From: Candidatus Aenigmatarchaeota archaeon
GTDB taxonomy: Archaea; Aenigmatarchaeota; Aenigmatarchaeia; Aenigmatarchaeales; DAIDAN01
Reading direction: 5' to 3'
Length of the DNA: 64,000 bases
Assembly (NCBI GenBank): GCA_049303335.1
Contig: JBAQNA010000022.1
Coordinates: 1,135-65,134, forward strand
The notes beneath the pieces are model-generated. The model was given only the letters and a program-made list of their open reading frames with translations, ran no database searches and was not told the DNA's origin. Positions 16,498-55,972 of this stretch are shown here, one piece after another. Position 1 is the stretch's first letter. The number at the start of each line of letters is the position of its first letter. A program made the translations under genes and the position numbers.

Positions 16498-16571
16498 TGG
16501 TGCGCCGGACGGGATTTGAACCCGTGTCGCGAGCTTGGCAAGCTCGTATCCTGCCACTAGACTACCAGCGC
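16498..16571 (-). tRNA. tRNA-Gly (GCC), CCA encoded
   Basis: The minus strand reads GCGCUGG UA GUCUAGUGGCAGGAUACGAGCUUGCCAAGCUCG...GGGUUCAAAUCCCGUCCGGCGCACCA. The anticodon loop is UUGCCAA and the T-loop is canonical. Confidence 0.85.
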
Positions 16572-18926: not shown

Positions 18927-19421
18927 ATGAAAATAGAAAGGGTTGTTCTTATGCCGTTCTGGTCAAAGCCGCAAAAGAAGGATATCGAGGCAGTGAAGCA
19001 GGCTGTTGTCCCGCAGGAAAGGCCGCAGCCAATGGATATGCCGAAGTTCGACCTCGGGAAACTTCCCGAGAGGCCGCGCTTTGCCCCGCTTTTTATCAAG
19101 ATTGACAGGTATCAGGAAATCCTTAATTCCATTGAAAATCTGAAGTCAATACTGCTCGGCGTGCGCGACTTGCTGAACCTGATGCAGCAGCTTGACAGGA
19201 TAAAAATCGAGTCCGAGACGCTTCTCAACAAGAACATACAGGAAGTCATCCTGATTATTTCCAACATGGACAAGGAATTCATCAGGCCGAAAGGCGTCAG
19301 CGTGGAGGATTCCGTGCAGGATGCGCGCGACAGCGCGGGGTATGAAAAAGTCGGGAACTACATAGGCGACCTGCAAAGGGAGCTTGACAACCTCAAGTCG
19401 CAGCTGCAGGATCTAAGATAA
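18927..19421 (+). CDS. hypothetical coiled-coil protein
   Basis: ORF with a heptad-rich C-terminus; no motif. Confidence 0.35.
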   Translation: MKIERVVLMPFWSKPQKKDIEAVKQAVVPQERPQPMDMPKFDLGKLPERPRFAPLFIKIDRYQEILNSIENLKSILLGVRDLLNLMQQLDRIKIESETLLNKNIQEVILIISNMDKEFIRPKGVSVEDSVQDARDSAGYEKVGNYIGDLQRELDNLKSQLQDLR

Positions 19422-19627
19422 TTTCTTTTTCCGCCTTTCAGTTAGTTTTAAATTCTTCTAAAAGTAAGGTGTTTTTGATTAAACTTTTTTCACCTGGGCA
19501 CGAAAACGTTTTACGTTTTCGGCTCCGCCAAAAATGCGCAGCATTTTTGTGCGTGAGCAACAGCAATATTAGTATGCGAAGCATCAATAATATCAACTGC
19601 TGCTAACTTTCACTAAAAAAAGTTTAC

Positions 19628-19809
19628 GCGGAGATAGCCAATCACCCTTTTTTGCTGGCGCAAAAAAGCGCGACCGGAAAAGGGCGGACAAAGCCAGGTC
19701 TAAGGCGCAAGGCTTAGGAACAGGTTTCCTTTTCGTGCGAAGCTCAGAGACCTGAATTGAGACACCTTGTGGGTTAGTCCCTTCGTCAGTTCAAATCTGA
19801 CTCTCCGCA
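19628..19809 (+). tRNA. tRNA-like gene (about 180 nt) with internal insertions; encoded CCA; identity unresolved
   Basis: The 5' GCGGAGA pairs perfectly with 3' TCTCCGC, followed by A-CCA. A canonical T-arm (cgtcag ttcaaat ctgac) is present and a long variable-arm-like hairpin suggests Leu/Ser type. It contains the hairpin cccttttttgctggcgcaaaaaagcgcg, which is also present in RNase P RNA. Confidence 0.4.
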
Positions 19810-19869
19810 CCAATTGATTTTGCAGGAACATCTTATGCTTTTTATATTCTTTGCGTTGCATTATATTTT

Positions 19870-20143
19870 GCAGAAGATGGCCGCGGTGGTGTAACGGCAT
19901 CGGGTGAAAACCCTGCACGTTAAAGCACAAGAGCCTGTGGAAAACCTTTTCTTTTTAAAAAGAAAAGGTTTATCAAAAGAAAACAAAATAGAAAAAAGGC
20001 TTTATCATGCACAAAAAACTGAAAGTTTTTTGGCACGCCGAAAATCTTTCAGATTTTCGTGCGAAAAAGAAACAGTATTGTTTCGGAATATTACAGAAAG
20101 CTCTTAGACCGAGTTCGAATCTCGGCCGTGGCCCCACTCACAT
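19870..20143 (+). tRNA. intron-containing tRNA-like gene (about 180-nt insertion), CCA encoded; identity unresolved
   Basis: The 5' GCCGCGG pairs with 3' CCGTGGC (one G-U), then C-CCA. T-arm ccgag-ttcgaat-ctcgg; the 5' part resembles an archaeal D-arm. The insert is the purine-rich hairpin type. Its 3' exon lies 14 nt upstream of cmk. Confidence 0.45.
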
Positions 20144-20156
20144 TGAAAGTGTTTTT

Positions 20157-20702
20157 ATGAAAAACGTGATATGCATATCCGGGCAGCCCGCATGCGGCAC
20201 AAGCACGGTCGCAAGGATTATCGCCGAGAAATTGGGATTGGAATATTTTTCTCCGGGGCAGTATTTCAAGAAGCATTCTTCGGGAAAGGAGACGGAGTCC
20301 GCAATAAACGTATGGAAAACGGAGAAAGGCTCAAGCAAGGATTTTCACAACGATATTGACAGGATTCAGTCGGAAATTGCCGAAAAAGGGAATGTTGTCA
20401 TAGACGGGAAGCTTTCAATAAGGATGATAAAGAACGCGGACCTAAAGGTCTGGCTGAAGGCTGACATTGACAAGAGGGCTGGAAGGGTTGTCAAAAGGGA
20501 TTTCATAAGTCTTGAATCGGCGCTCGCAAAGGTGAAAGAGCGAGAGGAATTGGAGAGAGTTAACTGGAAGAATATCTACGGCTTTGACTATTTCGAGCAG
20601 GAGAATGAGGCCGACCTGGTCGTTGACAACACCGAGCTTTCCGCGGAGGAAACCGCGCAAAAGATTCTGGAGTTCTGGGAAAGCAGGACGGAAAGGATTT
20701 AA
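20157..20702 (+). CDS. cmk: archaeal-type cytidylate kinase
   Basis: P-loop ISGQPACGTSTVARIIAEKLG, with the length and pattern of archaeal CMP kinases. Start set at 20157, because the longer ORF-track frame runs through the tRNA exon. Confidence 0.75.
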   Translation: MKNVICISGQPACGTSTVARIIAEKLGLEYFSPGQYFKKHSSGKETESAINVWKTEKGSSKDFHNDIDRIQSEIAEKGNVVIDGKLSIRMIKNADLKVWLKADIDKRAGRVVKRDFISLESALAKVKEREELERVNWKNIYGFDYFEQENEADLVVDNTELSAEETAQKILEFWESRTERI

Positions 20703-21340: not shown

Positions 21341-21676
21341 CAGCCGCGATAGAAATAGCGCTGGATAAAACAGGGCTCTCGACTTCTGAAAACCTTTAAA
21401 AGGTTCGGCGAAACCTATTTAAATATGTATCTTCATCAAAGGATACTACTTCACGGGTGTATTGCGGCCGGAGCGAGACAAGATTTTTGTCTGCAATGAA
21501 AAACCATCCTTGCATCCCGAGGAATCGGCTGCGCACAAAGGCGCGGTGTGGCAAACATGAGGATTAAATTATGTTTTTTCCGATGTGGGCGAAAGATTGG
21601 TGATACTCTGTTTAGTAGATTAGCAGGGATTCATAAAAACAAGTTGTAATTCACAACTTAGTGTGTTCTTTAACTA

Positions 21677-23848
<2,172 letters not shown>

Positions 23849-24202: not shown

Positions 24203-24292
24203 TAATCCGTTTTTTATTATTTTGTTTTTTCTGAAGTTTCATCATACCAGTCCGTGTATATTTAAATCTTGAATTGCAAAACAATTTTCAAT

Positions 24293-24461
24293 GGGCTGGT
24301 AGATCAACGGAAGCAACCCTTTCCGCTCGCTTTGCTCGCGCAAAGCGTTGACGGAAATTTCCGATATCGCTACCCTTGCAAGGTAGAGGTTCTGGGTTCA
24401 AATGAGTTTTTCTAAAAAGCTCAAGCAAAAATATGCTGTGAAAATCCCAGCCAGTCCACCA
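24293..24461 (+). tRNA. tRNA-Ala (TGC) in the rRNA spacer, interrupted by two insertions (D-loop and T-loop), CCA encoded
   Basis: Acceptor GGGCTGG/CCAGTCC with G3-U70. Anticodon stem ctacc/ggtag with loop cttgcaa. T-stem ctggg/cccag, with a roughly 40-nt insertion between the T-loop and the 3' T-stem strand. Ends A-CCA. Confidence 0.6.
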
Positions 24462-24899
24462 TATGCTTAAATAGCTGCGATATGAAACTAATCTTGCCGA
24501 ATATTTTGCGGTGAATTTGTATGCGTAACAAAACATCTTGCATTGGCGCGCTTTTCTAGAAATCTTCACCGAATTTATCGGATTTTTTCAGAACCGGTTT
24601 TTCTGTTGGAAATAATCTTTCGCTCACATCCTGCTCTTCATTTATCATATTCATTTTTTGGAAATGCGTGCACATCGCTGCTTTCGCGGCGGTGGAAGTG
24701 TTGATGGCAATGATTGCTTTCCCGAAAAGGGAGGGCACAATTGAACACCTATTGAATCCGAAAGGATTATGAAAAAACGGTTATCCATTGAGCCGCGCCA
24801 AATTTATTTGGCAAAGCGAAAAATTTATTTTTCGCGATGAAACTGGCAAAGGCAAGGACTGGCAGACGCAGCGACATTAAGTTGTTGCTCGCCTGCCGG

Positions 24900-27800
24900 T
24901 CAGGTCTGTGGGATAAGAATTGAAACAATAAGCCGTATGGCGGATGGCTTGGCTCTGAACAACGATGAAGGCCGCAGCAAACTGCGATAAGCACGGGGTA
25001 GGCGTATGCAGCCTTCGAACCCGTGATAGCCTAATGCGACTTCGCGCCTGCTTCGGCAGGCATTCGCGGAAGAGATTGCATCAAGCCTGCGAAAGTGAAT
25101 CCGCCGGATTAAAGCATTTAAGTAAGCGGAAGAAGAGAAAGAAAATCGATTCCGTTAGTAAGGGCGACTGAAAGCGGAACAGGACAAACCGAACCCGCCC
25201 GGAAACGGAGCGGGAATGTGGAGTTTGGACTCGGGCACTTCTTAACTTTCCAGCCCAAAGTTCCCTGGAATGGGACGCGACAAAGCGTGACAGCCGCGTA
25301 GGGGGACGGGAGAAAGAAGATTCCGGGTATCCAGAGTATCGTTCTTCGGATATAGAGCGAGAAGGCGGGTGCCATCAGTACCCAATCCTAAATATGTCCA
25401 GAGTCCGATAGCGCAATAGTAAGGTGACTGAAAGCTGAAAAGTACTCTTCACCGAGGGTGAAAAGAACCTGAAACCATACGGCGATAGTCTTTTATGGCA
25501 TGGAAGGTGCGCCTGCGAATGAACGCACCGCGAGGTGCAAGTAAGAGCGGGCGCTTACAGTGTCATAGAATTCGTTTCGAAACACGAGGCAGGGAGTTTG
25601 TTTCTGTGGCGAGGTTAATCCGGTTAGCGGAGAAGCCAAAGCGAAAGCAATAGGCGCGTAGCCGCGCAAGCGGCGTGGCGCGAGGTCTGAAAGGGCCTGC
25701 AGTCACAGGGACAAGACCCGAAACCGCTTGATCTAACCCTGGATAGGGCGAAGCGCGACGAAAGTTGCGTGGAGGCCCGGTACCGATGTTGGGCGCAACC
25801 ACTCGGGTGATTTGGGGTTAGGGGTGAAAAGCCAATCGAAAGCGGTAATATCTGGTTCCTTCCGAAATGCATATAGTGCAGCCTCATCCGAGGCAGCTGG
25901 CGGGGTAAAGCACTGATTGGGGAGTTAAGGAGCGAAAGTTCCGGCTTTCCTGTCAAACTCATAATCCGTTAGCGCCGTAGACGATGGGAGTGAGGGCACT
26001 GGGGTAAGCTCGGTGTCCGAAAGGGGAACAACCCAGCCTAAGGTTAAGGTCCCTAAATCTTAGCTAAGTCGCGAAAGTGGTGCTGGTTCAAAAACAGGAG
26101 GGGCGTAGGCTTAGAAGCAGCCATCGCATAATCAACGCGTAAAGCCCTTTTCTTTTTTGGTAACGAACTTGTAAAAAAGAAAAGCGCTTGCGGAAAAGAA
26201 AAACAAAAAAAAAGAAAAATCGGAAATAAAAACAAATAAAATCTTTTCCGGAAAGCGCGAAAGAAAAAGGCTCGCGAAACAGCGGACCTCTCGAGAATCA
26301 GTGCGCTGAAAATGGACGGGAGTAAGTTAAGTACCGATACCTTAGATATCGAAAGATATAGCGTAGGAAGGCGCTCCGTGCGGGCAGAAGCATCTGCGAG
26401 AGCGGGTGTGGACCGCATGGAGATGAAAATCCTGCCGGTAGTAGCAGCAACAGTTAGGTGAGAATCCTAATCGTCTAAGAGGCAAGGTTTTCCCGGCAAC
26501 GTTTTTCGGCCGGGAGTTAGTCGATCCTAAGTCCAATCTTAACTGAACTGGACGAAAGGGAAGCAGGTTAATACTCCTGCACCACGGGCATACGCGCGGT
26601 AACGCAAGTCCGAGCGCGGACGCTTCCGGACAAGCCGGCGCAAGTTAAGCGTTTAAATCCGGGGAGTTTCGTCATGAAGAGAACCGGATGAAGGCGTTAA
26701 CAGCTCTGCTGTATTGCGGAGTCCGGCCCATTTCAGGAGCCCATGAAAACGCGCGCGGAAAGAATTGCTCGTGTCCGTACCAAGAACCAACACAGGTGCC
26801 CTACGCTGAGAAAGCGAAGACGTCTCGGGATACACCATTTTAGGGAACTCGGCAAATTAGCTCCGTACCTTCGGTATAAGGAGTGCCTGGCCAGGGATTG
26901 GCCAGGTTTCAATAGCATGGGAGGAGCGACTGTTTAACAAAAACGCAGCCGACTGCTAAAGAGAAATCTTGCGTACAGTCGGTGAGGCCTGCCCAGTGCG
27001 AGTGTGTTAAAACCGGTTTCAACCGGTCCAAGCCCTCGTAAACGGCGGCGGTAACTCTGACCGTCTTAACGTCGGTCATTTTAGTCGCGAAAGCGGCGAT
27101 GAAAAAAATCAATCAATGCCGATTGAGATATAGGTAGCGTAAATGTTAGGTCCTAAATCCGAAATTATCAAATCGGGAATTTTCAGAATTGGAATTAACA
27201 GTCGGAGATGGACAGAGTTTTGCTCAACAGAAGCCACGAAAGCGGAAACGACTGTGTTATTAGAATCTCTTTTTTAAAAGAGACCTAACAGCGCATTCCC
27301 TTGTCGATTAATTGTCGACCCGCATGAATGGCTTAACGACTCCTCTACTGTCCCAAGATGGAACCCGGCGAACCTGCTATTGTGGTGAATAGGCCACAGA
27401 CCCTCAGAGGGAAGAGAAGACCCCGTGGAGCTCTGCGGCAGCCTGTCGTTGCTGTGCGGTCGCGGTCTCATAGCGTAGGCAGGAGCCGTTAAGCGTTGGA
27501 TTTCGGTCCAACGATAGGCGACAATGTAACACTGCCATCTCGTGACTGTATGGCTAACCTCGTTTTCGGGGAACACCGATTGGTAGGCCGCTCGGCTGGG
27601 GCGACGCGAACAAGTAGGAAATTATACCATTAAAATCCATTACCTGTTTGTCGCGCCTTATGTACGCCCTTGAGAGGAAAAAAGCTTTTTTCTTTTGAAA
27701 GAAAAAAGCTTTATCAAAAAAGAAACATTATACCTTATATCAAGGGCGCCCAAAGTTCTGCTCATTCCGGTCAGAAATCGGAAGTAGAGTGTAAGCGCAA

Positions 27801-29190
27801 AAGCAGGACTGACTGGATTCCGCACATCAAGGAATCCAGAGACGAAAGTCTGGGCTAACGATACGCCGAGTGTTCCTGATGGATTTCGGTGACTTCAGAA
27901 AAGCTACCCCGGGGATACGGGTTGGCGCGGAGCAAAGCGGGTCTTCTTGGAAAAAAATATTAATCTTAAATAGATTTATCGCTAGTTGTAAGATGGTGAA
28001 CAATATGTGTAAAGAATGCGGTGTAACTCTAAATGAATATGAAGAAGCATTAAGAACTATTGAAAGAGTAAAACCTAATTTATTGGAGATGAGCGATACT
28101 GCTCGCGCGGCAGATACAAATTTGCAATTATTGCAAAAACAACATATGAGTCATATCACAACAAAAGATAATTTTTCTTTTTTCACATTTTTCCAGGAAG
28201 GCCCGAAGCCCGTACCAACCCGCCAAATAACCGAGTCGTGGCGGGCGAGAGCTCCTAATTCTCACATCTCTAGATGTATTTCACAGAGAGATGGCAATGA
28301 GCAAATCGACTTTTTGAAATGGGTGATTTTCCGGCTGTTTAACGATGAGCGCATATTCGATTTAGCGAGTTAAACGAATTTTGAAGTAACTGATTTATTT
28401 TTAGAAGTTTTCAGATTTAGAAATACAAGAAATAAGGCAGTTATAGAGAAAATGATAGAAATAATTATGTTAGCCGGAATCCTATTTCAAGACGAGAACC
28501 CGCGCGTTGCTACCTCGCTGTCGGCTCCCCCTCTCCTGGTCGTGCAGTAAGCCCTTTTCTGTATCGAGCGTGCAAAAAGCGCTTGCGGAAAAGGTCCTGA
28601 ATGCGACCAAGGGTACAGGTGTTCACTGGTTAAAAGGGGACGTTAGCTGGGTTCAGAACGTCGTGATTCGTTGTGGGTTTTCATTTTACATGCGAAAGCA
28701 ATATTTCCGGTAAGGCGTGAGCATAATGACTTTACCGTCCCAAAATGAGCGGCACTAGCCGCGATGAATTTAGGAGTAGCTTATGAGTGCTGCCAATTTC
28801 CAGGCAACACGCTTTACCTTTTCAAACTTTCCTGGAATTCAGATGCGATTATCCACATCGAACGACATAGACAGTTCGGTCTTTATCTTCCGAGGGTGCA
28901 AAACCTGACCCGAAGGATGCCCAAGTACGAAAGGAACGTGCATCCGTGGCCACTGGTTGACCGGTTATCGTAATGGTAACGCCGGGCAGCTACGCCATAA
29001 TCGTTAACCGCTGAAGGCATGACAGCTGGAGCTAAATGTTCGGCTGTGCCGAACTAAGCGGGAAACGATCGGGAAAAATAGGTGGATGCTGACGGATAGA
29101 TCATCCGTTTAATGGGGCAGTGGTGTACGCACGAAGCCAAAAGCGACGTGTTCAGCCTTCTGCTCCCAATAGCGCAGTTTCAATTCTCTC
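24900..29190 (+). rRNA. 23S rRNA, about 4.3 kb (ends approximate), with multiple insertions
   Basis: Begins GGCGGATGGCTTGGCTC..GATGAAGG..GCGATAAGC. Conserved blocks recognised: GGAAAGACCCCGTGGAGCT, the CCCCGGGGATA region, GCTGGGTTCAGAACGTCGTGA and CGAACTAAGCGGGAAAC. Insertions at about 26140-26290, 27080-27300, 27660-27740 and 27935-28480. Confidence 0.8.
27993..28373 (+). CDS. ORF inside the 23S domain-V insertion (possible degenerate intron-encoded protein)
   Basis: A roughly 550-nt low-GC insert interrupts the 23S right after the conserved CCCCGGGGATA block. Its longest frame begins MVNNMCKECGVTLNEYEEALRT. No LAGLIDADG motif was recognised. Confidence 0.25.
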   Translation: MVNNMCKECGVTLNEYEEALRTIERVKPNLLEMSDTARAADTNLQLLQKQHMSHITTKDNFSFFTFFQEGPKPVPTRQITESWRARAPNSHISRCISQRDGNEQIDFLKWVIFRLFNDERIFDLAS

Positions 29191-29420
29191 AAAATGAGCT
29201 TTTCTTTTTACGCACGAAAACTTCGTTTTCGGCGCCCCTAAAAAGCTTCGCTTTTTATGGGAAAAGAAAAGCTCAAGCAAAAGAAAACATTTTGAAAAAG
29301 CTTGAGCAAAAAGAAAACTCTAAAAACGACCTGACCAATCGCGCGAAAGCGCGAGTCCTTGCCTTTGCCAGTTAATTTTTTCTTTAGAATTTTCTGGGTT
29401 AGCGGTAGCTGTATAAAATA

Positions 29421-30548
29421 TTATGATGGTAGTCTTAGGTTAAAAAATCTATAGACCTTAAAAGTTAAGAAAACTATTACAAATCTTGTTATTAATTCGG
29501 CAATTTCAAATATCGGGTCTTCTAAAGGGGAGAAATATAAACTTAATAAAAATACAGGCATATAGCTTATGAAATGCGTTGCAGATAATCTTATAAAATC
29601 ATTTTTGATTCGTATTTTCAATAAATCAATAATTGCTTTTCCTAACAAAAACATAATTACTCCATTAAATAAAATACCGAATAACCAAGTATCTATGACT
29701 TCAAACTCTCCGGCAACTATTGTAACACTAATGGCATAAAATATACCCCAGAAAAACCCGAATTTTATATATTTAAGATAATTTTTAAACCAACCACTTT
29801 CTCCAACATCTTCAAAAGATGAAATCTTTCTTTCAGATGATAAATTAGATTCTAGTATGTTAAGAATCTTATCAATCTCATTTTTTTCAAGTCTAATCCT
29901 ATTTTTCTTATTCTCAATAACTTTACATAAGTCTCCTATCTTAACAATATCGGATTGCGTTTTTTCAATTTGTAAATTTGCATCAGGATTTGTAAAAACC
30001 ACAATTGTGTTAATCCAAGGCTTGAATTTTTCAGAAAATATATTTTTCTCGGAAATAAACTCTTTTAATCTTACGGCATTTCTATCTGCTTGTTTTATTG
30101 GATTTTTCAAATCTGATACGTAATACCCGCCTTTAAGATTCATCTTTTCTTGCGTCCATTTGCCATTTTCATATTTTATGTTTCCTTTATGATTCTTTGT
30201 CTCGATTACAAAAATACCATTTTTACCTATAACTATATGGTCTATATTTCCTTCTGTATTTGGTAATCTGACATCATTTAATACGAAGAAATCTTTATCC
30301 AGTTTCTTTAATTCATCTATAACAGCTTCCTCTCCTTTTGCGCCCAAATTCCATGTGATATATTTGCTAAAATAAACTAACGATATGAAGAAAAATATTA
30401 AGCCTGAAAATAATCCATATAATGCAATAGGATAGTCGGAAATTAACCCAAAAAATGCAGTCAATATCGCAAATAAAAACAAGAATAAACCACGGTTTCT
30501 ATTTAGATTGGAAAATGTTCTTGAGAATAATTCATGATTGTTTGACAT
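29421..30548 (-). CDS. membrane-anchored NERD-domain (nuclease-related) protein
   Basis: NERD signature GEEAVIDELKKL...DFFVLNDVRLP...GNIDHIVIGKNGIFVIETKNHKG; TM helices at the N- and C-terminal ends; low-GC gene. Confidence 0.65.
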   Translation of the reverse strand: MSNNHELFSRTFSNLNRNRGLFLFLFAILTAFFGLISDYPIALYGLFSGLIFFFISLVYFSKYITWNLGAKGEEAVIDELKKLDKDFFVLNDVRLPNTEGNIDHIVIGKNGIFVIETKNHKGNIKYENGKWTQEKMNLKGGYYVSDLKNPIKQADRNAVRLKEFISEKNIFSEKFKPWINTIVVFTNPDANLQIEKTQSDIVKIGDLCKVIENKKNRIRLEKNEIDKILNILESNLSSERKISSFEDVGESGWFKNYLKYIKFGFFWGIFYAISVTIVAGEFEVIDTWLFGILFNGVIMFLLGKAIIDLLKIRIKNDFIRLSATHFISYMPVFLLSLYFSPLEDPIFEIAELITRFVIVFLTFKVYRFFNLRLPS

Positions 30549-48128: not shown

Positions 48129-49358
48129 TCACTCGGCTTTTCCTTCCAAAAGCTCTTCAACCGTCCTTAAAATGATTTCCAAACCGTCCTGATTTTTCAC
48201 TCTCGCAACTTCTTCGCGAGCGCCTTTTCCAAAAGAATATGCTGCGATATATCCCTTCTTCTTTTTTATCCTTCGCATCGCGGTCTCGAAATTATCCACA
48301 ACATTCCTCCCCACGCCTTCGCTTTGCTTGACTTGAATCGGATAGCCTCCTAAAAGCTGCGGCGTAAAGCCGTCTATTCCCATATCCCCGCTTTTCTTGT
48401 CGCTTACCCTGCCTAAAAATTTGCCTGCTACAACCCAGTTCTGGAACTCGAAAGGCGGAAGGCGTTTTACATAATTCAAATCAACATTTCCTCTTATCAG
48501 GTTTGCATCCATATTACATTCTCTCTGCAATCTTTTTTTGATTAGTTTGCAGGCTGTGGGACTTATGTCTATGCCAATCCATTTTCTTCCAAATTTTTGC
48601 GCTGAAATTATTGTAGTTCCGCAGCCGCAGAACGGGTCTAAAACAATATCGCCATCGTTGCTTGCCGCTTTGATAATTCTCTCAAGAAGCGTTAGCGGTT
48701 TTTGAGTAGGGTAGCCTGTTCTCTCTCTTGCCGCAGGATTTATTGCCTGAATGTCCGTCCACCAATCATTAGGCAGAGTCCCTTTGTCCAAATAGTAGCG
48801 ATATTCTTTTCCGAGCTTGATATTTCTCTGATATTGCCTGCCTTTTTCATCGGTAAGAATTGTTTCATGCATTGTGGAAGGGTCTCTTGGCAGAGCAACA
48901 GCATTATAATAAAAATTATATTTTTCCGTTTTGGAATACCAAAAAATAGTGTCATGTTTCTTTGGAAAAAAACCGGTTGCCCTTCCGCCTGTTTCATAAC
49001 ACCAAATTATCTCATTTACAAGATTATTATTGAATATTTTATCCAACAAAATCCGAAGGTGCGCGTTAGCGTGCCAGTCACAGTGCAAAAATAATGAGCC
49101 TGTTTTTTTCAATATTCTATGGCATTCCCTCAAGCGCGGCTCCATCCATGAGATATAATGCTCAACCCCGCCTTTCCATCTGTCCTGAAAAGCGCGAATC
49201 TCTGCGCCATCTTTCCATATCACTTCATATTGTCTATTTGAGAAAAACGGAGGGTCCGCGTAAATCAGGTCTATGCTTTCGTCGGGAAACTTGCTCATAA
49301 TTTCCAGATTATCGCCTTCGTAAATGCTGTTTATTTCCATAAAATCACTGCAAAACAA
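48129..49358 (-). CDS. DNA methyltransferase (beta-class N6A/N4C, DPPF motif) fused to a C-terminal Mrr-like PD-(D/E)xK nuclease domain
   Basis: Motif IV IYADPPFF is followed by motif I DPFCGCGTT (beta-class order). The C-terminus GDMGIDGF...IQVKQSEG fits Mrr_cat D...(D/E)xK. Confidence 0.7.
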   Translation of the reverse strand: MFCSDFMEINSIYEGDNLEIMSKFPDESIDLIYADPPFFSNRQYEVIWKDGAEIRAFQDRWKGGVEHYISWMEPRLRECHRILKKTGSLFLHCDWHANAHLRILLDKIFNNNLVNEIIWCYETGGRATGFFPKKHDTIFWYSKTEKYNFYYNAVALPRDPSTMHETILTDEKGRQYQRNIKLGKEYRYYLDKGTLPNDWWTDIQAINPAARERTGYPTQKPLTLLERIIKAASNDGDIVLDPFCGCGTTIISAQKFGRKWIGIDISPTACKLIKKRLQRECNMDANLIRGNVDLNYVKRLPPFEFQNWVVAGKFLGRVSDKKSGDMGIDGFTPQLLGGYPIQVKQSEGVGRNVVDNFETAMRRIKKKKGYIAAYSFGKGAREEVARVKNQDGLEIILRTVEELLEGKAE

Positions 49359-49466
49359 TTAATAATACCTATTTAATATAGCTGATGCTGGTTTAAATAT
49401 TTTTAAGACTGCCTGCTGAAAATCAGAAACGCAGTTGTTTTTAAGTTTTAAAATCATATTATTCTT

Positions 49467-50807
49467 ATGTTCAAGTTCCAGATTCTCAAGTATTACTCGC
49501 AGCCGTTCGTCCAGCAAAAAATATCCGAGTTCTCGAAAGGGCGCGAAGTTGTCGGCAGGCTGGAGGACGACCGCTATGCGCGGCGCCCCGACGTGATTCT
49601 TTATCCGCGCGACGTTTCCGAAAAGGTGAAGCAGGGCGCGGTAAGCTTCCACTGCTCGGTCGAGCGGTGGCACAACCCCATGCAGCTTTCCTCCGAGATG
49701 CGCGAGCCGGAAATGCGCGAGCTGCGCAGCGGCTGGGATTTCATAATCGACATCGACGCGAAGGCGAAGCTGGAGCACGCGAGGATTGCGGCGCAATCAG
49801 TCATTTCTTTTCTGAAGGATTTTGGAATAACACCAACGATAAAGTTCTCGGGAAGGCGCGGTTTTCATATCGGAGTGTCCGGCGAAGCGTTCCCGAAAAA
49901 AATGGATTTCTTGGAAGTGTCAAAATCCTATCCGGAGGCTCCGCGCGCGATGGCCGGCTTTATCAGGGAAAAGATTTCCGACAGGCTTATGGATTCCTTG
50001 GTAGGAATGGAGGGCGGCGTTGCCGCGCTGATGAAGACCGCGGACGCAAAGACGCTCTCGCCTTACGAGTTCATTGACATAGAAAAGGAATGGGGAAACC
50101 GCCACCTCTTCAGGATGCCGTATTCGCTGCACGAGAAGACCTGGCTCGCTTCGGTGCCGCTTTCGGAAAAACAGCTGAAAACTTTCGAGCCCTCGCAGGC
50201 AAAGCCGGAGAGCATAAAAAAATTCGACTCCGTATTCTTGAAAAACAAGGAAGGTGAAGCATCCGAGCTTCTGATGCAGGCGCTCGAATGGCAGTCAAAA
50301 ACGGTTCAGCCTGCATTGGTTCAGAAAAATGACAGGAAGCATTCCGAAATAAAGGCCGAGATTCCGGAGCAGTTTTTCCCGCCCTGCGTAAAAAATATTC
50401 TGGCGGGAATAGGCGACGGGAGGAAGCGCTCCGTTTTCACGCTGTCCGCGTTCCTGAAATACATGAACTGGACGCCGGAGCACATCGAGAAACGCGTGGA
50501 GGAATGGAACGGAAAAAACCCGTCTTCGATAAGCAACGCGACCATAAGGAGCCAGCTCAAGTGGCACCTGCGCCAGAACAGAAAAATATTCCCCGCGAAC
50601 TGCGACAGCGATTTGTTCTACAAGTCCATAGGCGTGTGCAATCCGGACAACACGTGCCATGGACTGAAGAACCCGATTAATTACGCGTTCCGAATGTATA
50701 GAAAACAGTTCAAGACAGCCGACATCGCGATAAAGAAGGACAGGAAAGTATTAAGGAGAGTCAGAAAGAAAAAAGAAGATAAAACTAATCAAATAACCCA
50801 GTCTTGA
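49467..50807 (+). CDS. fused DNA primase PriS-PriL (small catalytic subunit plus large-subunit Fe-S domain in one polypeptide)
   Basis: AEP motifs WDFIIDIDAK and KFSGRRGFHIG, with RMPYSLHEKT. The C-terminal domain carries the PriL-CTD motif FFPPCVKNIL...RKRSVFTLSAFL and downstream Cys residues CDSD...C...C. Confidence 0.7.
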   Translation: MFKFQILKYYSQPFVQQKISEFSKGREVVGRLEDDRYARRPDVILYPRDVSEKVKQGAVSFHCSVERWHNPMQLSSEMREPEMRELRSGWDFIIDIDAKAKLEHARIAAQSVISFLKDFGITPTIKFSGRRGFHIGVSGEAFPKKMDFLEVSKSYPEAPRAMAGFIREKISDRLMDSLVGMEGGVAALMKTADAKTLSPYEFIDIEKEWGNRHLFRMPYSLHEKTWLASVPLSEKQLKTFEPSQAKPESIKKFDSVFLKNKEGEASELLMQALEWQSKTVQPALVQKNDRKHSEIKAEIPEQFFPPCVKNILAGIGDGRKRSVFTLSAFLKYMNWTPEHIEKRVEEWNGKNPSSISNATIRSQLKWHLRQNRKIFPANCDSDLFYKSIGVCNPDNTCHGLKNPINYAFRMYRKQFKTADIAIKKDRKVLRRVRKKKEDKTNQITQS

Positions 50808-50976
50808 AATCCTGTTTTAATTTTTCAAAATCGCTTATGCCATACTTTCTTGCTAAGACTTTTTCATATGCTTTTATTGTTTCCTTAGAATAGCCTTTGT
50901 CCAAGCCTTCAAAATATTCTCTTGCAATGTCCCCCAACCCGCCAACGATGCCCATTTTCTTTTCTTCCCCTCGCAA
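50785..50976 (-). CDS. hypothetical small protein
   Basis: 63 aa; overlaps the primase 3' end. Confidence 0.2.
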   Translation of the reverse strand: MRGEEKKMGIVGGLGDIAREYFEGLDKGYSKETIKAYEKVLARKYGISDFEKLKQDFKTGLFD

Positions 50977-51024
50977 CCTTTTTCTTGAAAGATAATTTGC
51001 AAAGTACTAATGCGCCGGCACGCT

Positions 51025-51105
51025 TATAAACTTATCGCTTTCCGCGGCTTTGCTCCTAAACTCGGTTCTGCTCCTAATGTCGGAGTTTTGCTCCTAAAGT
51101 CGTTA
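51025..51105. repeat. triple tandem approximately 18-bp repeat (ttGCTCCTAAAnTCGG) preceded by the 16-mer CGCTTTCCGCGGCTTT; left boundary of the RM/IS island
   Basis: Reads ctttgctcctaaactcgg / ttctgctcctaatgtcgg / agttttgctcctaaagtcg. The 16-mer cgctttccgcggcttt recurs at about 57015. Confidence 0.5.
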
Positions 51106-51396
51106 GAGTTTTAATTTCGCTGGGTCAATACCAGCTTCCCTCATTCTTTTCAGTATTGCTTCTCTATCTATCGGCTTACCTTCTTTAAGCCGCTTTCTTA
51201 TTTCCTCTTTTGTTTTGTGGCAATTAGGGCAATCTTCCAGAACTTCATAGACTTCTTTTGATGTGTGATAGCCGCGAACCGCACCCATTGTTGCGGTGCG
51301 TGTTGTTTTCGTTGATATGACAGATGGCTTATGCCTAACCTTGATTTTAGCCTTCTCACAAAATGGGCAATCCATTAACAGTTCTTGTTCTAACAT
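51103..51396 (-). CDS. zinc-ribbon protein (CPFC ... CPNC)
   Basis: 97 aa; two CxxC pairs; basic residues. It is the first gene inside the island. Confidence 0.4.
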   Translation of the reverse strand: MLEQELLMDCPFCEKAKIKVRHKPSVISTKTTRTATMGAVRGYHTSKEVYEVLEDCPNCHKTKEEIRKRLKEGKPIDREAILKRMREAGIDPAKLKL

Positions 51397-51443
51397 AATT
51401 TTCTAATCAATTTTAAAGAATATAAGATTAATGAGCATGGCTT

Positions 51444-52385
51444 TTAGATATTTGAACTATAAGATAAGGATTTTATATAATCTTCCATAAATTTCCAGTC
51501 AGGGTCTCCTTTTTTATCTATAGGTAATTCTATTTCATCAAAATCTAATCTTTGCAGTCTTACTTGTCTACCAAAATTATATTTATATTGCAGTTCTTTT
51601 AGAATTGTTGCTAAAAATAAGCAAATATACTTATTGAGAGAAAGACTTTTTGGAATTAAAGTATGAACATTATCATCACTAAAATATTCATAATTATGAT
51701 AGAATACATTAAAAAACATATCAATTGTTAATTTATCTCTGAAAATCTTTTTACTGTCTTTAAATTCATCATAAGAAATATAATCAACAACCCCGTTATT
51801 TTCAGACGTTGCAGTAATTAGTGGGATTTTACCTTCTATTCTTTCTTCTTTTACCAATCTTTCACCTTTTTTAATGTTAAATAAATCAACAATCTTAAAA
51901 TTTTTCCAAGTTTTAACATTTAATTCAATTTTCTTAGAGATAATCGGTTCTTTTTTCAATTCATTGATTTTTAATGAATATATCCAAGAAGGAATTTTTT
52001 CTTTAGATGGAATTTCTAAATCTTTTAGTGTTTTATTAGCTTGTCTTCCATAAGAATATTTCCATGCATTTTGTTTTAAACACATACAATAATACCATAA
52101 TTCGCGTTCATTTAATTTTATTTTTGGTGTTAAGTATACTATATGAAACCCGCTATAATACGGTTCTTTTTGTAAAAAACTCGCCATCACAGAACCACCA
52201 CAAGAAACCGAAATAGTATTTGCAGGATTTGGCGTAATCCCTTCAATTAATTTGACTTTGCCAACAACACCATTATTTTTTTCAGTTCGGGCTACAAATG
52301 GAATACCATTAGAATCTTCTTCCATATTGGAAAATTCTAAATTAACACCATATTTTAAATTAAAATAGTCTTTTACTTTGACCAT
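51444..52385 (-). CDS. restriction-modification specificity subunit (HsdS/BcgIB-like, two short TRDs)
   Basis: Two repeated TRD-like halves (YFNLKYGVNLEF...IPFVARTEKNNGVVGKV and WKNFKIVDLFNIKKGERL...IPLITATSENNGVVDYI). 1-nt spacing to the upstream gene. Low GC. Confidence 0.65.
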   Translation of the reverse strand: MVKVKDYFNLKYGVNLEFSNMEEDSNGIPFVARTEKNNGVVGKVKLIEGITPNPANTISVSCGGSVMASFLQKEPYYSGFHIVYLTPKIKLNERELWYYCMCLKQNAWKYSYGRQANKTLKDLEIPSKEKIPSWIYSLKINELKKEPIISKKIELNVKTWKNFKIVDLFNIKKGERLVKEERIEGKIPLITATSENNGVVDYISYDEFKDSKKIFRDKLTIDMFFNVFYHNYEYFSDDNVHTLIPKSLSLNKYICLFLATILKELQYKYNFGRQVRLQRLDFDEIELPIDKKGDPDWKFMEDYIKSLSYSSNI

Positions 52386-54404
52386 TTAATCACCCGTATT
52401 TAAAAATTTAAAAGCAACAAAATCTTTTAATGTTTTCTCAAAATCTTTTTCATTTAATTTAGAATAATCTGTTTCCATATATGCTTCAACACACCATTCA
52501 TCATTGGCGGTTACATATTTCTTAACACTAAACCCTTCAATTTCTTCTTTATTTCTATAATTTTCTAACCAATATTTTTTTATTTCATTCCATTTATTTT
52601 TATAATCATCTCTTCCAGATTTTCTTTTTATAAATCCGTCATCTTTCCAATAACCAAAATAAGTCTTATAATTTGTTGGATGTTTTTCTTTTGCCTTAAA
52701 TACCATAATACAAGTATTAACCCCAACATTAGAGTTATGAAACAACTCTGTTGGCATAGAAAAAACGGCTTCCAGAGTATTTTCTCTTAACAATTTTTCT
52801 TTAAGTTCCAAACCGGTACCGCTTTGAGCTAAAGCACAGCTCATAGGAACAATAGCAATACATAAAGAACCCTTTTCAAGTAAATATAAATTATTTAATA
52901 CAAATTCTAACTCTTCTGGGTCAGTTTTAGTTGATTTGTATGGAGGATTAAGAAAGCCCGTATTAGGTTTAAATGTTTTTATTTTGTTAATTGTTTTTTC
53001 ATTGAAACATGAACCTTTAATCAAGTTACTTCTCCCATCTCCGTGAATAAACATATTAGAACATACCAAAGCAAAAATATCATGCTGAAACTCAACACCA
53101 ATTATTTGTTTATGTTTTATAATTTCTTCTTTCTTTGTATCTCCTGCGGCGTCCTCAATCATTTTTCTCATAGCACTTATCAGGAAACCCCCAGTTCCAC
53201 AGCAAGTATCTAAAACCACACTATCTTTATTTATATTGGCTATCTCCGAAAATAATTCGGTGATGTGTGGAGGAGTTAAAACAATTCCTAAACCCTTATC
53301 ATTATTAGCATATCTTAAAAATTCTATATAAAATTGTCCAAGAGTATCAAAATATTGATATGTTTTATTAAAATTATTTATCCTCAAATCTACTTCGGTT
53401 ATAATATCTCTTAATTCATTTTCTTCTTTTGAAAGTATTGTATGAGTTTTTATGAAACTGTATGTAGTTATAATATCAACTATATGTTCGTTTTGAACGT
53501 TTGTTAATTTATTTTTTATAGTATTGACAAGGCTTTCAGATAATTCTTTTGGTTTCTGAAATTTATAAGAATTACAAAAAGCTTTATCTTGTAATGCTAT
53601 AAGTATTCCGCTAATTAACAAACTCCTATTAGCTTCTGGAACTTTTATGGCGTGAAGTTTATCATTTAATATTTTTGAATATCTTAACAGTTCTTGAAAA
53701 TCTTGATTAAACTTCTTCTCATCTGATTTGTAGCCATTTATATAATCATACAAGGAAAAAAGTTTATCTTCTTTAAATATAGTATTTGCTTCTTTAACTC
53801 CTTTCAGTTGTAAAAAATGAGAAATTCTTATATTAGATTTTTCTTCTCCACTAATTGCTATAGACAAAACATCATACTCTTTAGAAAGAAAAGAAGAATA
53901 TAATAAAGCTCCATCAACAGCATAATCTTTATATTTATCTCCTTCTTTAGATTTATGATATTTTGTATTAGCTTTACATTCAACAACTATTATAAAATCT
54001 GGAATTTCTTTAAATTGAATTATAAATTCTGGGTAACCCTTCCCATTTCCACTTTTTGAAGCATTTTTTAATAATTTATCAATCTTTATATTTTTAGTGG
54101 CTTGTTCTTCAAATATTATGCTGTTAAACATCCCATCATTCTTAAAATGAGTTCTTACAAAGTCTTCAGTAATTCTTTCGTTTCTCATTTTTTCCCCCTC
54201 TTTAGATACTCTTCTATTGAGATTTGTATGACTTTCGACCTGTCTGTTGGGGCTGGTTTTGTTTGAGAACAATATTCGTCTAATTCTTTTAGAACTTGTT
54301 TGCTTATAGAAATAGTTGCCCTTGCCTTTACAACTTCTTTTTTCATGTAATAATTGAGAAGATTGTGACTTATAATCTTTAGTATGATTAGTATTACTTC
54401 TCAT
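52386..54404 (-). CDS. Type IIB/IIG restriction-modification enzyme A subunit (N-terminal PD-(D/E)xK nuclease plus gamma-class N6-adenine methyltransferase, BcgIA-like)
   Basis: Motif IV FLNPPYKS (NPPY) and motif I LDTCCGTGGFLISA. The N-terminus has PDFIIVVECK, a nuclease (E)xK-like pattern. Together with the 313-aa S subunit this matches BcgI A/B architecture. Confidence 0.7.
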   Translation of the reverse strand: MRSNTNHTKDYKSQSSQLLHEKRSCKGKGNYFYKQTSSKRIRRILFSNKTSPNRQVESHTNLNRRVSKEGEKMRNERITEDFVRTHFKNDGMFNSIIFEEQATKNIKIDKLLKNASKSGNGKGYPEFIIQFKEIPDFIIVVECKANTKYHKSKEGDKYKDYAVDGALLYSSFLSKEYDVLSIAISGEEKSNIRISHFLQLKGVKEANTIFKEDKLFSLYDYINGYKSDEKKFNQDFQELLRYSKILNDKLHAIKVPEANRSLLISGILIALQDKAFCNSYKFQKPKELSESLVNTIKNKLTNVQNEHIVDIITTYSFIKTHTILSKEENELRDIITEVDLRINNFNKTYQYFDTLGQFYIEFLRYANNDKGLGIVLTPPHITELFSEIANINKDSVVLDTCCGTGGFLISAMRKMIEDAAGDTKKEEIIKHKQIIGVEFQHDIFALVCSNMFIHGDGRSNLIKGSCFNEKTINKIKTFKPNTGFLNPPYKSTKTDPEELEFVLNNLYLLEKGSLCIAIVPMSCALAQSGTGLELKEKLLRENTLEAVFSMPTELFHNSNVGVNTCIMVFKAKEKHPTNYKTYFGYWKDDGFIKRKSGRDDYKNKWNEIKKYWLENYRNKEEIEGFSVKKYVTANDEWCVEAYMETDYSKLNEKDFEKTLKDFVAFKFLNTGD

Positions 54405-54494
54405 ACTAATACATATTGTATCATACTATTAATACTAATCATACTATATATTTTCGCAGAAATTCTTATCTTAAAAACTTTTCAGAAATACAAC

Positions 54495-54644
54495 TCACGC
54501 TTTTTTCTTCATCTCCTCGTCTATCTTTTTCTGGACGAAGTGGGAGAGGTTGATGTAGTGGTCTTCTATATATTTGGCTTGATGAGGGAATAATGTTATG
54601 TTCTTTTTGACCGCCTTTTCTTCCTCTTTTTTCTTCTTTGTCAT
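54495..54644 (-). CDS. small basic protein (possible RHH/regulator) adjacent to the transposase
   Basis: MTKKKKEEEKAVKKNITLFPHQAKYIEDHYINLSHFVQKKIDEEMKKKA. The upstream extension in the ORF track is a Tyr/Thr low-complexity artefact of TA-rich repeats. Confidence 0.25.
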   Translation of the reverse strand: MTKKKKEEEKAVKKNITLFPHQAKYIEDHYINLSHFVQKKIDEEMKKKA

Positions 54645-54760
54645 ATTATACGTATAATAGGTATGAGTATATATACTTGTGTATGTATACATATAATACG
54701 TATTATGTGTATAATAGAAATACAGAAACATAACAATCAAAAAACAAAAGAGGCGATTTA

Positions 54761-55972
54761 ATGCAAAACCAAAATTCAGCTAACATGACAAGAGAGCAGA
54801 AAGGATTAGAGATAGCAAAAACTTCCCAAATAACAAAGAATGAAAAGGGATATTGGAAAGTGCCAAGCCAGTCGGGGCATGGCTACTATCTTGTGAATCT
54901 TAACAAGCATGAGCCAGAATGTTCTTGCCCAGACTGCGAATTAAGAAAGCTGAAATGCAAGCACATTTTCGCGGTAGAATTTTATCTGAAAAGGGAAATT
55001 GACAGCACGGGCAACATGACAGAAACAAAGGCAGTAAAGATAACTTATTCGCAGAATTGGGAAGCATACAACAAAGCACAAACAAGCGAGTTAAGGCTCT
55101 TTGATGTTCTGCTTAAAGACTTGGTTAATGATGTGGAAGAGCCAAAACAGCACATGGGAAGAAAGAGATTAGACATTAAGGATACCATGTTTTGCGCAAT
55201 ACAAAAAGTCTATTCCCAGCTTTCAAGCAGAAGGGCATACTCGCTTTATGCAAACGCAAAAGAAAAGGAAAAGATAAAGAACGCTCCGAATTTCAACGCA
55301 ATAAACAAGTTCCTTAACCGCGAGGATATAACGCCGATACTACACAATTTGCTGACATTAACGGCTTTGCCTCTAAAAAGCGTGGAAACGACTTTTGCCC
55401 CAGACAGTTCTGGTTTCAGAACCACACAATTTAACGAATACTGCAAAGAAAAGCATGGCACGGACAAATATCATATATGGGTAAAGGCGCATATCCTTGT
55501 CGGGACTAAAACAAATATCGTGGCGAGTGCAAGAATAACCGAAGGGGAAAGTGCTGATTGTCCGCAGTTCGCACCTATGGTTAATGAAGCCCATGACAAC
55601 GGCTTTGAGATAAAAGAGATAACAGCGGACAAGGCTTATTCAAGCCGTGATAACTACTCTTTGGCTCAAAGCATAGGAGCAACCGCCTTTATCCCTTTTA
55701 AATCAAACGCTACGGGAAAATCAAGAGGCTCTATGATTTGGGGGCAGATGTATCACTACTTCATGTATAGGCATGATGAGTTTATGCAACACTACCACCA
55801 GCGAAGTAATGTAGAAAGTGCCTTCAACATGATTAAGGCGAAATTCGGCGACAAGTTAAGAAGCAAAAATTATGTGGCACAACAAAATGAACTTTTATGC
55901 AAACTGATAGCCCACAATATCGTTGTGCTGATACATGAGATACACGAACTCGGGATAAAGCCCGAGTTCTGA
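54761..55972 (+). mobile_element. IS4/IS5-like DDE transposase with N-terminal SWIM zinc finger (IS element ORF)
   Basis: SWIM CSCPDCELRKLKCKHIFAV. DDE region ...ADKAYSSRDN... and the C-terminal YHQRSNVESAFNMIKAKFG (conserved E) are typical of DDE_Tnp_1. TA-rich imperfect repeats lie upstream at 54400-54760. Confidence 0.7.

Follow-up and report, generated by a model that had tools for sequence, protein, structure and literature searches.

Does a tRNA gene that standard finders pass over, and whose D and T arms are both broken by inserts, still encode a working tRNA? The question is raised by 169 nucleotides (nt) in the genome of a tiny uncultured archaeon of Candidatus Aenigmatarchaeota, within a stretch of 64,000 nt that we analyzed as a whole and call the window (assembly GCA_049303335.1, contig JBAQNA010000022.1, positions 1,135 to 65,134; all coordinates below are window positions unless a relative is named). 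An earlier note on this DNA had proposed a tRNA-Ala(UGC) gene with two non-canonical introns in the spacer between the rRNA genes. All of the sequence tests that we ran support this proposal, among them 4/4 central helices at both junction pairs and an identical mature tRNA predicted for relatives, and the location is confirmed on the same strand between the 16S and 23S genes. Judged from the sequence, the segment is very probably a functional tRNA-Ala(UGC) gene in the rRNA spacer of a member of the Aenigmatarchaeota (DPANN), interrupted by two introns of the bulge-helix-bulge (BHB) type that would be spliced by proteins.

The gene runs from G1 of the acceptor stem to the final A of an encoded CCA (24459-24461; Table 1). 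Its 7-bp acceptor stem (GGGCTGG/CCAGTCC) includes G3:U70, the identity pair that marks alanine tRNAs. The anticodon arm is CTACC-CTTGCAA-GGTAG, with the anticodon TGC at 24377-24379, and the T-stem halves are CTGGG, followed by TTCAAA, and CCCAG. The presence of the acceptor stem, the anticodon stem-loop, and both T-stem halves, which the earlier note had claimed, is thus borne out at exact coordinates. Its description of the inserts needs adjustment: the insert of about 55 nt that it placed in the D-loop region is real, but measures 52 nt and separates G22 from A23 in the 3′ strand of the D stem, and the one of about 40 nt that it placed before the 3′ T-stem strand is also real, but measures 42 nt and separates A59 from U60 within the T loop, a single nt short of the 3′ T-stem strand.

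ARAGORN made no call on the unspliced gene, with or without its intron option or at lowered thresholds, and Rfam gave no match at the locus, either at the gathering score or at E<=10; the sole tRNA that ARAGORN reported across the whole window is a tRNA-Gly (16498-16571). Once both inserts were removed in silico, ARAGORN called the 75-nt product tRNA-Ala(tgc): stems of 7/4/5/5 bp form the cloverleaf, the D arm consists of a 4-bp stem and a loop of 7 nt that holds A14, G18, G19, and A21, and the T loop reads TTCAAAT. The unspliced 169 nt fold with a z score of −4.99 relative to shuffles, which, with the identical mature sequence of three contigs (below), speaks for more than chance. ARAGORN acceptance cannot locate the junctions, however, because 1500 of 5550 variants from brute-force splicing were accepted.

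We located the junctions through a register rule in which p is the last nt of the 5′ exon, q is the first nt of the 3′ exon, and p−5 to p−2 pair with q−3 to q−6. The rule was checked on the canonical case, the 37/38 intron, in which the 5′ strand of the central helix comprises tRNA positions 32-35 (PMC4090602). Joining 24313 to 24366 gives the D arm GATC-AACGGAA-GATC, and no other removal on the D side restores a proper one. Under the rule, this first intron has a central helix (H) of CGGA and UCCG paired at 4/4 positions, with ensemble pair probabilities of 0.72 to 0.79, an outer helix (h) of 1 bp, and an inner helix (h′) of 2 bp, beyond which come a 3-nt bulge and a further 6 bp. The second intron can be removed in five sequence-equivalent registers (56/57 to 60/61), which arise from repeated A and T residues. 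Register 24402|24445 alone gives H 4/4, with the 5-bp T stem as outer helix (h 5), whereas the other four reach 1-2 of 4. Its helix, UUCA:UGAA, has pair probabilities of 0.69 to 0.85 in the unconstrained ensemble, and the minimum free energy (MFE) structure contains the T stem, this helix, and the 3′ bulge of 3 nt. Directly 3′ of the predicted 5′ splice site of intron 2 stands a hairpin that is conserved, GAGUUUUUC-UAA-AAAAGCUC; it occupies the place of an inner helix while the T stem forms the outer one, which makes the motif hBH. In both introns the predicted splice sites fall after the second nt of the 3-nt bulge on each strand. A blind search, in which all BHB-like pairs in the 169 nt were spliced in all combinations and end-to-end ARAGORN calls were kept, led back to these junctions, and no other solution had a normal D arm.

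BHB structures at the insert boundaries, to which the earlier note had looked, are therefore present with a 4/4 central helix at both junction pairs, in relaxed forms. Both introns failed the strict hBHBh′ form, in which outer and inner helices of >=2 bp flank both bulges; the motifs belong to relaxed classes (near-HBh′ for intron 1 and hBH for intron 2) that are documented for archaea with permissive endonucleases. The positions, 22/23 and 59/60, are likewise documented archaeal intron sites and stand, together with 20/21, on the published list of non-canonical ones (Yoshihisa 2014, PMC4090602). To call introns at such positions rare, as the earlier note did, is fair; the few archaeal lineages to which it confined them must be taken to include DPANN, and both sites had already been listed (PMC4090602).

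It is decidedly unlikely that the gene is a real intron-containing tRNA-Ala with one or both junctions elsewhere (at 24306|24363, for example, or in another T-loop register), or with recognition of a kind other than BHB. The candidate 24306|24363 (H 4/4, h 2) does also yield an ARAGORN call, the motif of intron 1 is relaxed and is not the MFE conformation, and the T-loop junction is ambiguous in sequence over its five registers. The product of 24306|24363, however, is a 71-nt molecule essentially without a D loop, whereas 24313|24366 restores the complete D arm; and 24402|24445, the only T-loop register with a full central helix, falls at the position, 59/60, that is also used in ARMAN-2.

Several observations weigh against the two-intron interpretation and should be set beside its support. 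In strict register, intron 1 has an outer helix of a single base pair and intron 2 has no inner helix (h′ = 0). The MFE structure lengthens the central helix of intron 1 by A:U and G:U pairs, which produces a 6-nt bulge, and the strict BHB conformation costs ~5 kcal/mol. Intron 1 is identical in the sole other copy that we recovered (L010, below), so it offers no covariation. Endonucleases of narrow specificity cut hBH substrates poorly (PMC5829648), and a Pfam scan of 27 open reading frames (ORFs), confined to the window, found neither EndA (tRNA_int_endo) nor RtcB. A generic BHB scan, finally, was not discriminating by itself: it listed 9 candidates for the actual sequence and 10.05 +/- 4.4 for shuffled ones. 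As that scan is not significant, the weight falls on the coincidence of the junctions with restoration of the cloverleaf and on comparison with relatives.

For that comparison, GTDB genomes and JGI metagenomes were scanned with an exact pattern that ran from the anticodon loop through the sixth base of the T loop and did not require an intron. The scan returned 11 loci with 7 distinct alleles. Two of the loci are close to that of the window: L001, from a Candidatus Aenigmatarchaeota metagenome-assembled genome (MAG) whose 23S gene is 86-98% identical to the window’s, and L010, a metagenome contig with 89.7% identity over the spacer and the 5′ end of the 23S gene. Flanks are ~86-90% identical among the three. 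L010 carries a 52-nt intron 1 identical to ours and a 40-nt variant of intron 2. L001 (7451-7577, minus strand) has a 42-nt intron 2 with substitutions and is without the 52-nt intron; in its place, two nt upstream at 20/21, stands an insert of 13 nt whose own central helix, AACG:CGUU, is paired at 4/4 positions, the D stem forming an outer helix of 4 bp. Spliced at their BHB-predicted junctions, all three loci give the identical 75-nt tRNA. Nothing supports the intron 1 junctions of the window more strongly than the fact that L001 arrives at exactly the same mature D arm, GATC-AACGGAA-GATC, by way of a different intron, which also argues against any other placement. The difference between L001 and the window, 13 nt at 20/21 against 52 nt at 22/23, is intron turnover in one tRNA between close relatives. 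In the hairpin of intron 2, both substitutions that fall in paired stem positions preserve pairing (U:G to C:G and G:C to G:U).

The same alignment bears on whether the gene is a decaying one, a spacer tRNA-Ala disrupted by two insertions from which no working tRNA is made. Standard tRNA finders do reject the locus, and the surrounding rRNA genes and neighboring tRNA genes are full of insertions. All 75 exon positions, however, are invariant in the three contigs while the flanks and the introns vary, the helix-forming UGAA by the 3′ junction is kept in every allele, the nucleotides of identity and tertiary interaction are all intact, and the adjacent rRNA genes score full-length. We consider a pseudogene very improbable.

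Nor do we expect the inserts to persist in the mature molecule as expansion segments of an enlarged D arm and T loop, a possibility that we regard as extremely improbable. The inserts fold as stable hairpins, and the rRNAs of this organism may themselves hold expansion-like inserts. All elongator tRNAs, however, need the elbow formed between G18/G19 and the T loop, which 42 nt in the T loop and 52 nt in the D stem would destroy. The close relative has just 13 nt, at another site in the D arm, and the geometry of the junctions fits a splicing motif.

Almost no probability attaches to the remaining explanation, that the inserts are self-splicing or mobile elements such as group I or group II introns or a miniature transposon. 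Group I introns are known in DPANN rRNA genes, one of them in a 23S gene of Aenigmarchaeota (PMC6125680), and motifs that resemble portions of the two introns turn up at other places in the window. With lengths of 52 and 42 nt, however, neither insert is nearly long enough to be a ribozyme intron, Rfam found no intron family at the locus even at E<=10, there are neither terminal inverted repeats nor target duplications, and the junctions fit BHB geometry.

The two protein-spliced introns favored here would be removed as follows. The sequence shows each junction pair of the precursor drawn together around a 4-bp helix, between D-loop CGGA and intron UCCG for intron 1 and between T-loop UUCA and intron UGAA for intron 2, with 3-nt bulges on either side. 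By the archaeal pathway (PMC4090602, PMC7714728), EndA would cut after the second bulge nt at four sites (G22|C, U|A23, A59|U, and A|U60), and an RtcB-type ligase would join the three exons as the introns are released. The 5′ and 3′ ends would then be trimmed, the CCA being already encoded, to leave a 75-nt tRNA with G3:U70 and that CCA. Because both motifs are relaxed, the enzyme to be expected is a permissive, broad-specificity form of EndA as described for DPANN. The elbow between the D and T loops would be blocked until both introns are out, so splicing probably precedes or gates the remaining maturation.

Table 1. Coordinates of the tRNA-Ala(UGC) gene, its predicted splicing elements, and other interrupted or possibly regulatory features of the window
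Feature	Position	Strand	Remarks
tRNA-Ala(UGC) gene, 3 exons and 2 predicted introns	24293..24461	+	From sequence; spliced form called by ARAGORN
Exon 1 (GGGCTGGTAGATCAACGGAAG)	24293..24313	+	5′ acceptor strand, 5′ D-stem strand, D loop, G22; window, L010, and L001 identical as far as the L001 junction
BHB 1 central helix, 5′ strand CGGA	24308..24311	+	5′ bulge A-G|C at 24312-24314
Predicted intron 1, 52 nt, tRNA position 22/23	24314..24365	+	Sole junctions restoring D stem GATC/GATC
BHB 1 central helix, 3′ strand UCCG	24360..24363	+	3′ bulge A-U|A at 24364-24366
Exon 2	24366..24402	+	Remaining D stem, anticodon arm, variable loop, 5′ T-stem strand, T-loop 54-59; invariant in window, L010, and L001
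BHB 2 central helix, 5′ strand UUCA (T loop 54-57)	24397..24400	+	5′ bulge A-A|U at 24401-24403
Predicted intron 2, 42 nt, T-loop position 59/60	24403..24444	+	Register 24402|24445; homologues in L001 and L010
BHB 2 central helix, 3′ strand UGAA	24439..24442	+	3′ bulge A-A|U at 24443-24445
Exon 3 (TCCCAGCCAGTCCACCA)	24445..24461	+	U60, 3′ T-stem strand, 3′ acceptor strand with U70, discriminator A73, CCA
TATA-like box GTATATTTAAATC	24256..24268	+	26-33 nt upstream of the tRNA 5′ end; last nt 25 nt before it; possible promoter
16S rRNA gene, insert-rich	21677..23847	+	Upstream of the tRNA; Rfam; true 3′ end GGATCACCTCCT at 23836-23847
23S rRNA gene, insert-rich	24916..29173	+	Downstream of the tRNA; Rfam
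tRNA-His(GUG)	19880-20136	+	Missed by ARAGORN and Rfam; G-1 encoded at 19879; C73; CCA encoded
tRNA-Leu(UAG)	19628-19812	+	Hidden; long variable arm

The nine other loci from the scan (L002 to L009 and L011; for example, L003, 2048-2147) lie on Nanoarchaeota-type contigs and hold a different spacer tRNA-Ala(UGC), placed closely 3′ of the 16S gene. Their alleles have an insert of 28-33 nt at 59/60 and no D-arm intron, and the insert sequences are unrelated to those of the window. Three of the alleles add an inner helix of 2-8 bp, and some fit the strict hBHBh′ form. The string UGAA-NN|U-CCCAG at 59/60 is common to 7/7 distinct alleles, introns of otherwise unrelated sequence included. The same-strand order of 16S, tRNA-Ala, and 23S genes is shared by L001, L003, L004, and L005. 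One locus, L002, bears the label of an “uncultured Methanosarcinales” MAG; in tRNA-Ala gene and flanks it does not differ from L006, L009, and L011 and resembles a Nanoarchaeota MAG locus, and the contig may have been misbinned. The window’s own affiliation is settled by a dCTP deaminase-like gene product upstream of the locus, which matches an NCBI protein from a MAG of Candidatus Aenigmatarchaeota at 100% identity; a search with this protein for syntenic relatives returned only itself at E<=1e-20.

An intron at 59/60 in every Aenigmatarchaeota-type and Nanoarchaeota-type allele that we recovered, with a pattern that did not require one, is the basis for a bolder reading: that the 59/60 intron of the spacer tRNA-Ala(UGC) is an old and selectively retained feature of DPANN rRNA loci rather than a neutral recent insert, and that tRNA disruption in the Aenigmatarchaeota, with two introns in each of three of the window’s four tRNA genes, reaches the level seen in ARMAN-2 or the Thermoproteales. 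We consider this reading rather unlikely. If it were true, maturation of this tRNA might be tied to the endonuclease that also acts on the intron-rich pre-rRNAs, which would impose an order on processing or a quality check. Our literature search found no report of a 59/60 intron in a DPANN spacer tRNA-Ala or of the level of tRNA disruption in Aenigmatarchaeota, a weak negative given that strings such as “59/60” cannot be matched in such a search.

The tRNA-Ala gene is not the only interrupted one in the window. A simple T-arm search uncovered two hidden tRNA genes in the “intergenic” stretch 19421-20165 (Table 1). In the tRNA-His(GUG) gene, one intron, of 25 nt, lies at 20/21 (19899-19923); its central helix is AACG:CGUU (H 4/4), and the D stem serves as its outer helix. 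The other is canonical (37/38) and measures 158 nt (19941-20098; H CUGU:ACAG 4/4, h 6, h′ 2). ARAGORN calls the spliced product tRNA-His(gtg). The tRNA-Leu(UAG) gene has a canonical 37/38 intron of 45 nt (19719-19763; H 4/4, h 7) and an insert of ~51 nt in the D loop (~19642-19692) for which a strict BHB fit failed, the best reaching 3/4. Three of the window’s four tRNA genes thus hold two inserts each. The D-loop insert of tRNA-Leu resembles intron 1 of tRNA-Ala, the two having in common ACCCTTT..GCGCAAA..AGCG..GAC(C)GGAAA, and they may belong to a shared intron family. The first ~43 codons of a cytidylate kinase-like ORF (20007-20702) overlap the tRNA-His gene; its Pfam match starts at residue 54, and the true start codon probably lies further downstream.

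The rRNA genes are interrupted as well. We placed insert boundaries by pairwise MAFFT alignment to an insert-poor relative, a rough procedure, especially at the 3′ end of the 23S gene. Relative to the Rfam model, the 16S gene holds inserts of 279, 77, 54, and 22 nt. The Rfam match stops at 23664 and the true 3′ end lies beyond it, at 23847, which makes the gene ~2.17 kb long and further inserts probable. One insert, 23400-23492, has a strong BHB (H UCAU:AUGA 4/4, h 8, h′ 3) whose junctions coincide precisely with the boundaries given by alignment to L003. The 23S gene reaches ~29173, as against 27968 in the first Rfam call, and its last third has inserts of 563 (~27936-28498), 204, 61, 59, and 55 nt; that at 28666-28868, between GUCGUG and AGACAG, likewise has strong BHB junctions (H GUCG:CGAC 4/4, h′ 4). 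An ORF of 167 amino acids without a Pfam match (27870-28373) overlaps the 563-nt insert. The 23S gene of L001, at 4754 nt, is insert-rich too. The BHB junctions predicted in the tRNA-His, tRNA-Leu, and rRNA genes make the reading of tRNA-Ala more secure, and by these predictions the organism clearly would depend heavily on the BHB splicing pathway.

How the spacer tRNA-Ala, which the earlier note took from its position to be part of rRNA operon processing, is transcribed and released is a separate matter. The spacers on its two sides are long (~445 nt from the end of the 16S gene and ~455 nt to the start of the 23S gene). A TATA-like box, GTATATTTAAATC, precedes the gene at a spacing that would fit an archaeal TATA box; its core, ATTTAAAT, is invariant in the window, L010, and L001 although the flanks differ, and T-runs lie just upstream of it at 24205-24235. 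These hints, T-runs and TATA-like box, point away from cotranscription and coprocessing with the rRNA, and the tRNA-Ala may be transcribed from its own promoter, alone or together with the 23S gene. A conserved CTTAAATAG lies directly 3′ of the tRNA-Ala (24466-24475), and ATTTAAATAT, which resembles it, is found ~250 nt before the start of the 16S gene (21417-21426). Separate promoters for the 16S gene, the tRNA, and the 23S gene are possible. An exact-complement search showed that the 23S gene is flanked by a perfect 20-bp complement, AACTGGCAAAGGCAAGGACT (24841-24860/29354-29373), likely a processing stem, with a second complement of 9 bp further in (24898-24906/29328-29336). The search gave no convincing processing stem for the 16S gene, and long-range duplex folding for processing stems gave uninterpretable structures.

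Repeats that resemble halves of intron 2 of tRNA-Ala occur in the 3′ trailer of the 23S gene (29190-29330): TGAGCTTTTC at ~29195, AAAAGCTCAAGCAAAA at 29267-29282, which is a 16-nt exact match to intron 2 (E 8e-4), and AAAAGCTTGAGCAAAAA at ~29298. A search for copies of intron 2 within the window gave this 16-nt exact match alone, and the corresponding search for intron 1 gave short motif matches only. A hairpin, CACGAAAAC..GTTTTCGGCG, recurs at ~19497, 20043, and 29211. Directly after the rRNA locus stands the gene for a NERD-domain protein (29421-30548, minus strand). Further along, the stretch 48129-55972 is low in GC (0.32 at 52-56 kb) and encodes a DNA methylase fused to an Mrr-like nuclease domain (48129-49358, minus strand), an N6 DNA methylase (52386-54404, minus strand), and a DDE transposase with a SWIM finger (54761-55972). 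This stretch and the NERD-domain gene are probably mobile or defense DNA.

Mechanistically the locus is not new: positions and splicing of this kind are already known, and non-canonical and multiple tRNA introns are well documented in the Thermoproteales, Nanoarchaeum, Korarchaeum, Methanopyrus, and ARMAN-2. The closest parallel in several respects is ARMAN-2, also a DPANN archaeon, in which a T-loop intron at 59/60 likewise draws on the T stem for the outer helix of a relaxed hBH motif and was cut in vitro by the epsilon2 EndA (2011, PMC3239211). In ARMAN-2, too, a single tRNA can hold more than one non-canonical intron, and the 13-nt D-loop intron of L001 matches the size of its mini-introns. 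Here, however, the tRNA is tRNA-Ala, the host belongs to the Aenigmatarchaeota, the partner intron sits in the D arm at 22/23, and the gene lies between the 16S and 23S genes; and whereas the ARMAN-2 intron was cleaved in vitro, ours are predicted from sequence. In DPANN more widely, alpha4 EndAs with an L3 loop are associated with increased disruption of tRNA genes (PMC5829648). The pre-tRNA-Glu(UUC) of Methanopyrus kandleri also has two introns and a relaxed motif in the D region (HBh′, 20b/21), and relaxed D-arm motifs of this kind need a permissive enzyme (PMC5829648). The second intron of M. kandleri is canonical (37/38), whereas neither intron of the window’s tRNA-Ala is.

Among Crenarchaeota, Pyrobaculum islandicum tRNA-Pro(UGG) has introns at 25/26, 37/38, and 56/57 (Sugahara et al. 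2007/2008, as related in PMC4090602). In the portion of the Thermoproteales literature conveyed by that review, the likeness to our locus extends to as many as three BHB, HBh′, or hBH introns per tRNA, to recurring positions that include 20/21, 22/23, and 59/60, to the high share of disrupted tRNA genes, and to similar introns in different tRNAs, of which the resemblance between intron 1 of tRNA-Ala and the D-loop insert of tRNA-Leu is a possible echo. The Thermoproteales differ in belonging to another superphylum and in their (alpha-beta)2 endonuclease with a crenarchaeal loop. Their rRNA spacers are not known to carry a tRNA-Ala.

In Euryarchaeota, spacer tRNA-Ala(UGC) is released during EndA-dependent processing of the pre-rRNA (PMC7714728, PMC10351888). 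The window shares with that arrangement the tRNA species, the position between 16S and 23S genes, the strand, and a processing stem around the 23S gene, and differs from it in the long spacers and in the conserved TATA-like box before the tRNA. Euryarchaeal spacer tRNA-Ala genes are not known to be interrupted.

The tRNA-Ala locus extends heavy tRNA gene disruption to another DPANN phylum and to a tRNA within the rRNA locus. The sequences also show signs of intron families common to several tRNAs and of intron turnover between close relatives (22/23 as against 20/21), and genes whose exons are identical but whose D-arm introns differ, one of 52 nt at 22/23 and one of 13 nt at 20/21, should be useful in the debate on gain and loss of non-canonical introns. 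The consequences for annotation are immediate, in that ARAGORN and the Rfam tRNA model miss the tRNA-Ala and at least two further genes in the same 64 kb. Without intron-aware tRNA searches, the completeness and the codon-reading capacity of MAGs from Aenigmatarchaeota and other DPANN lineages would be underestimated.

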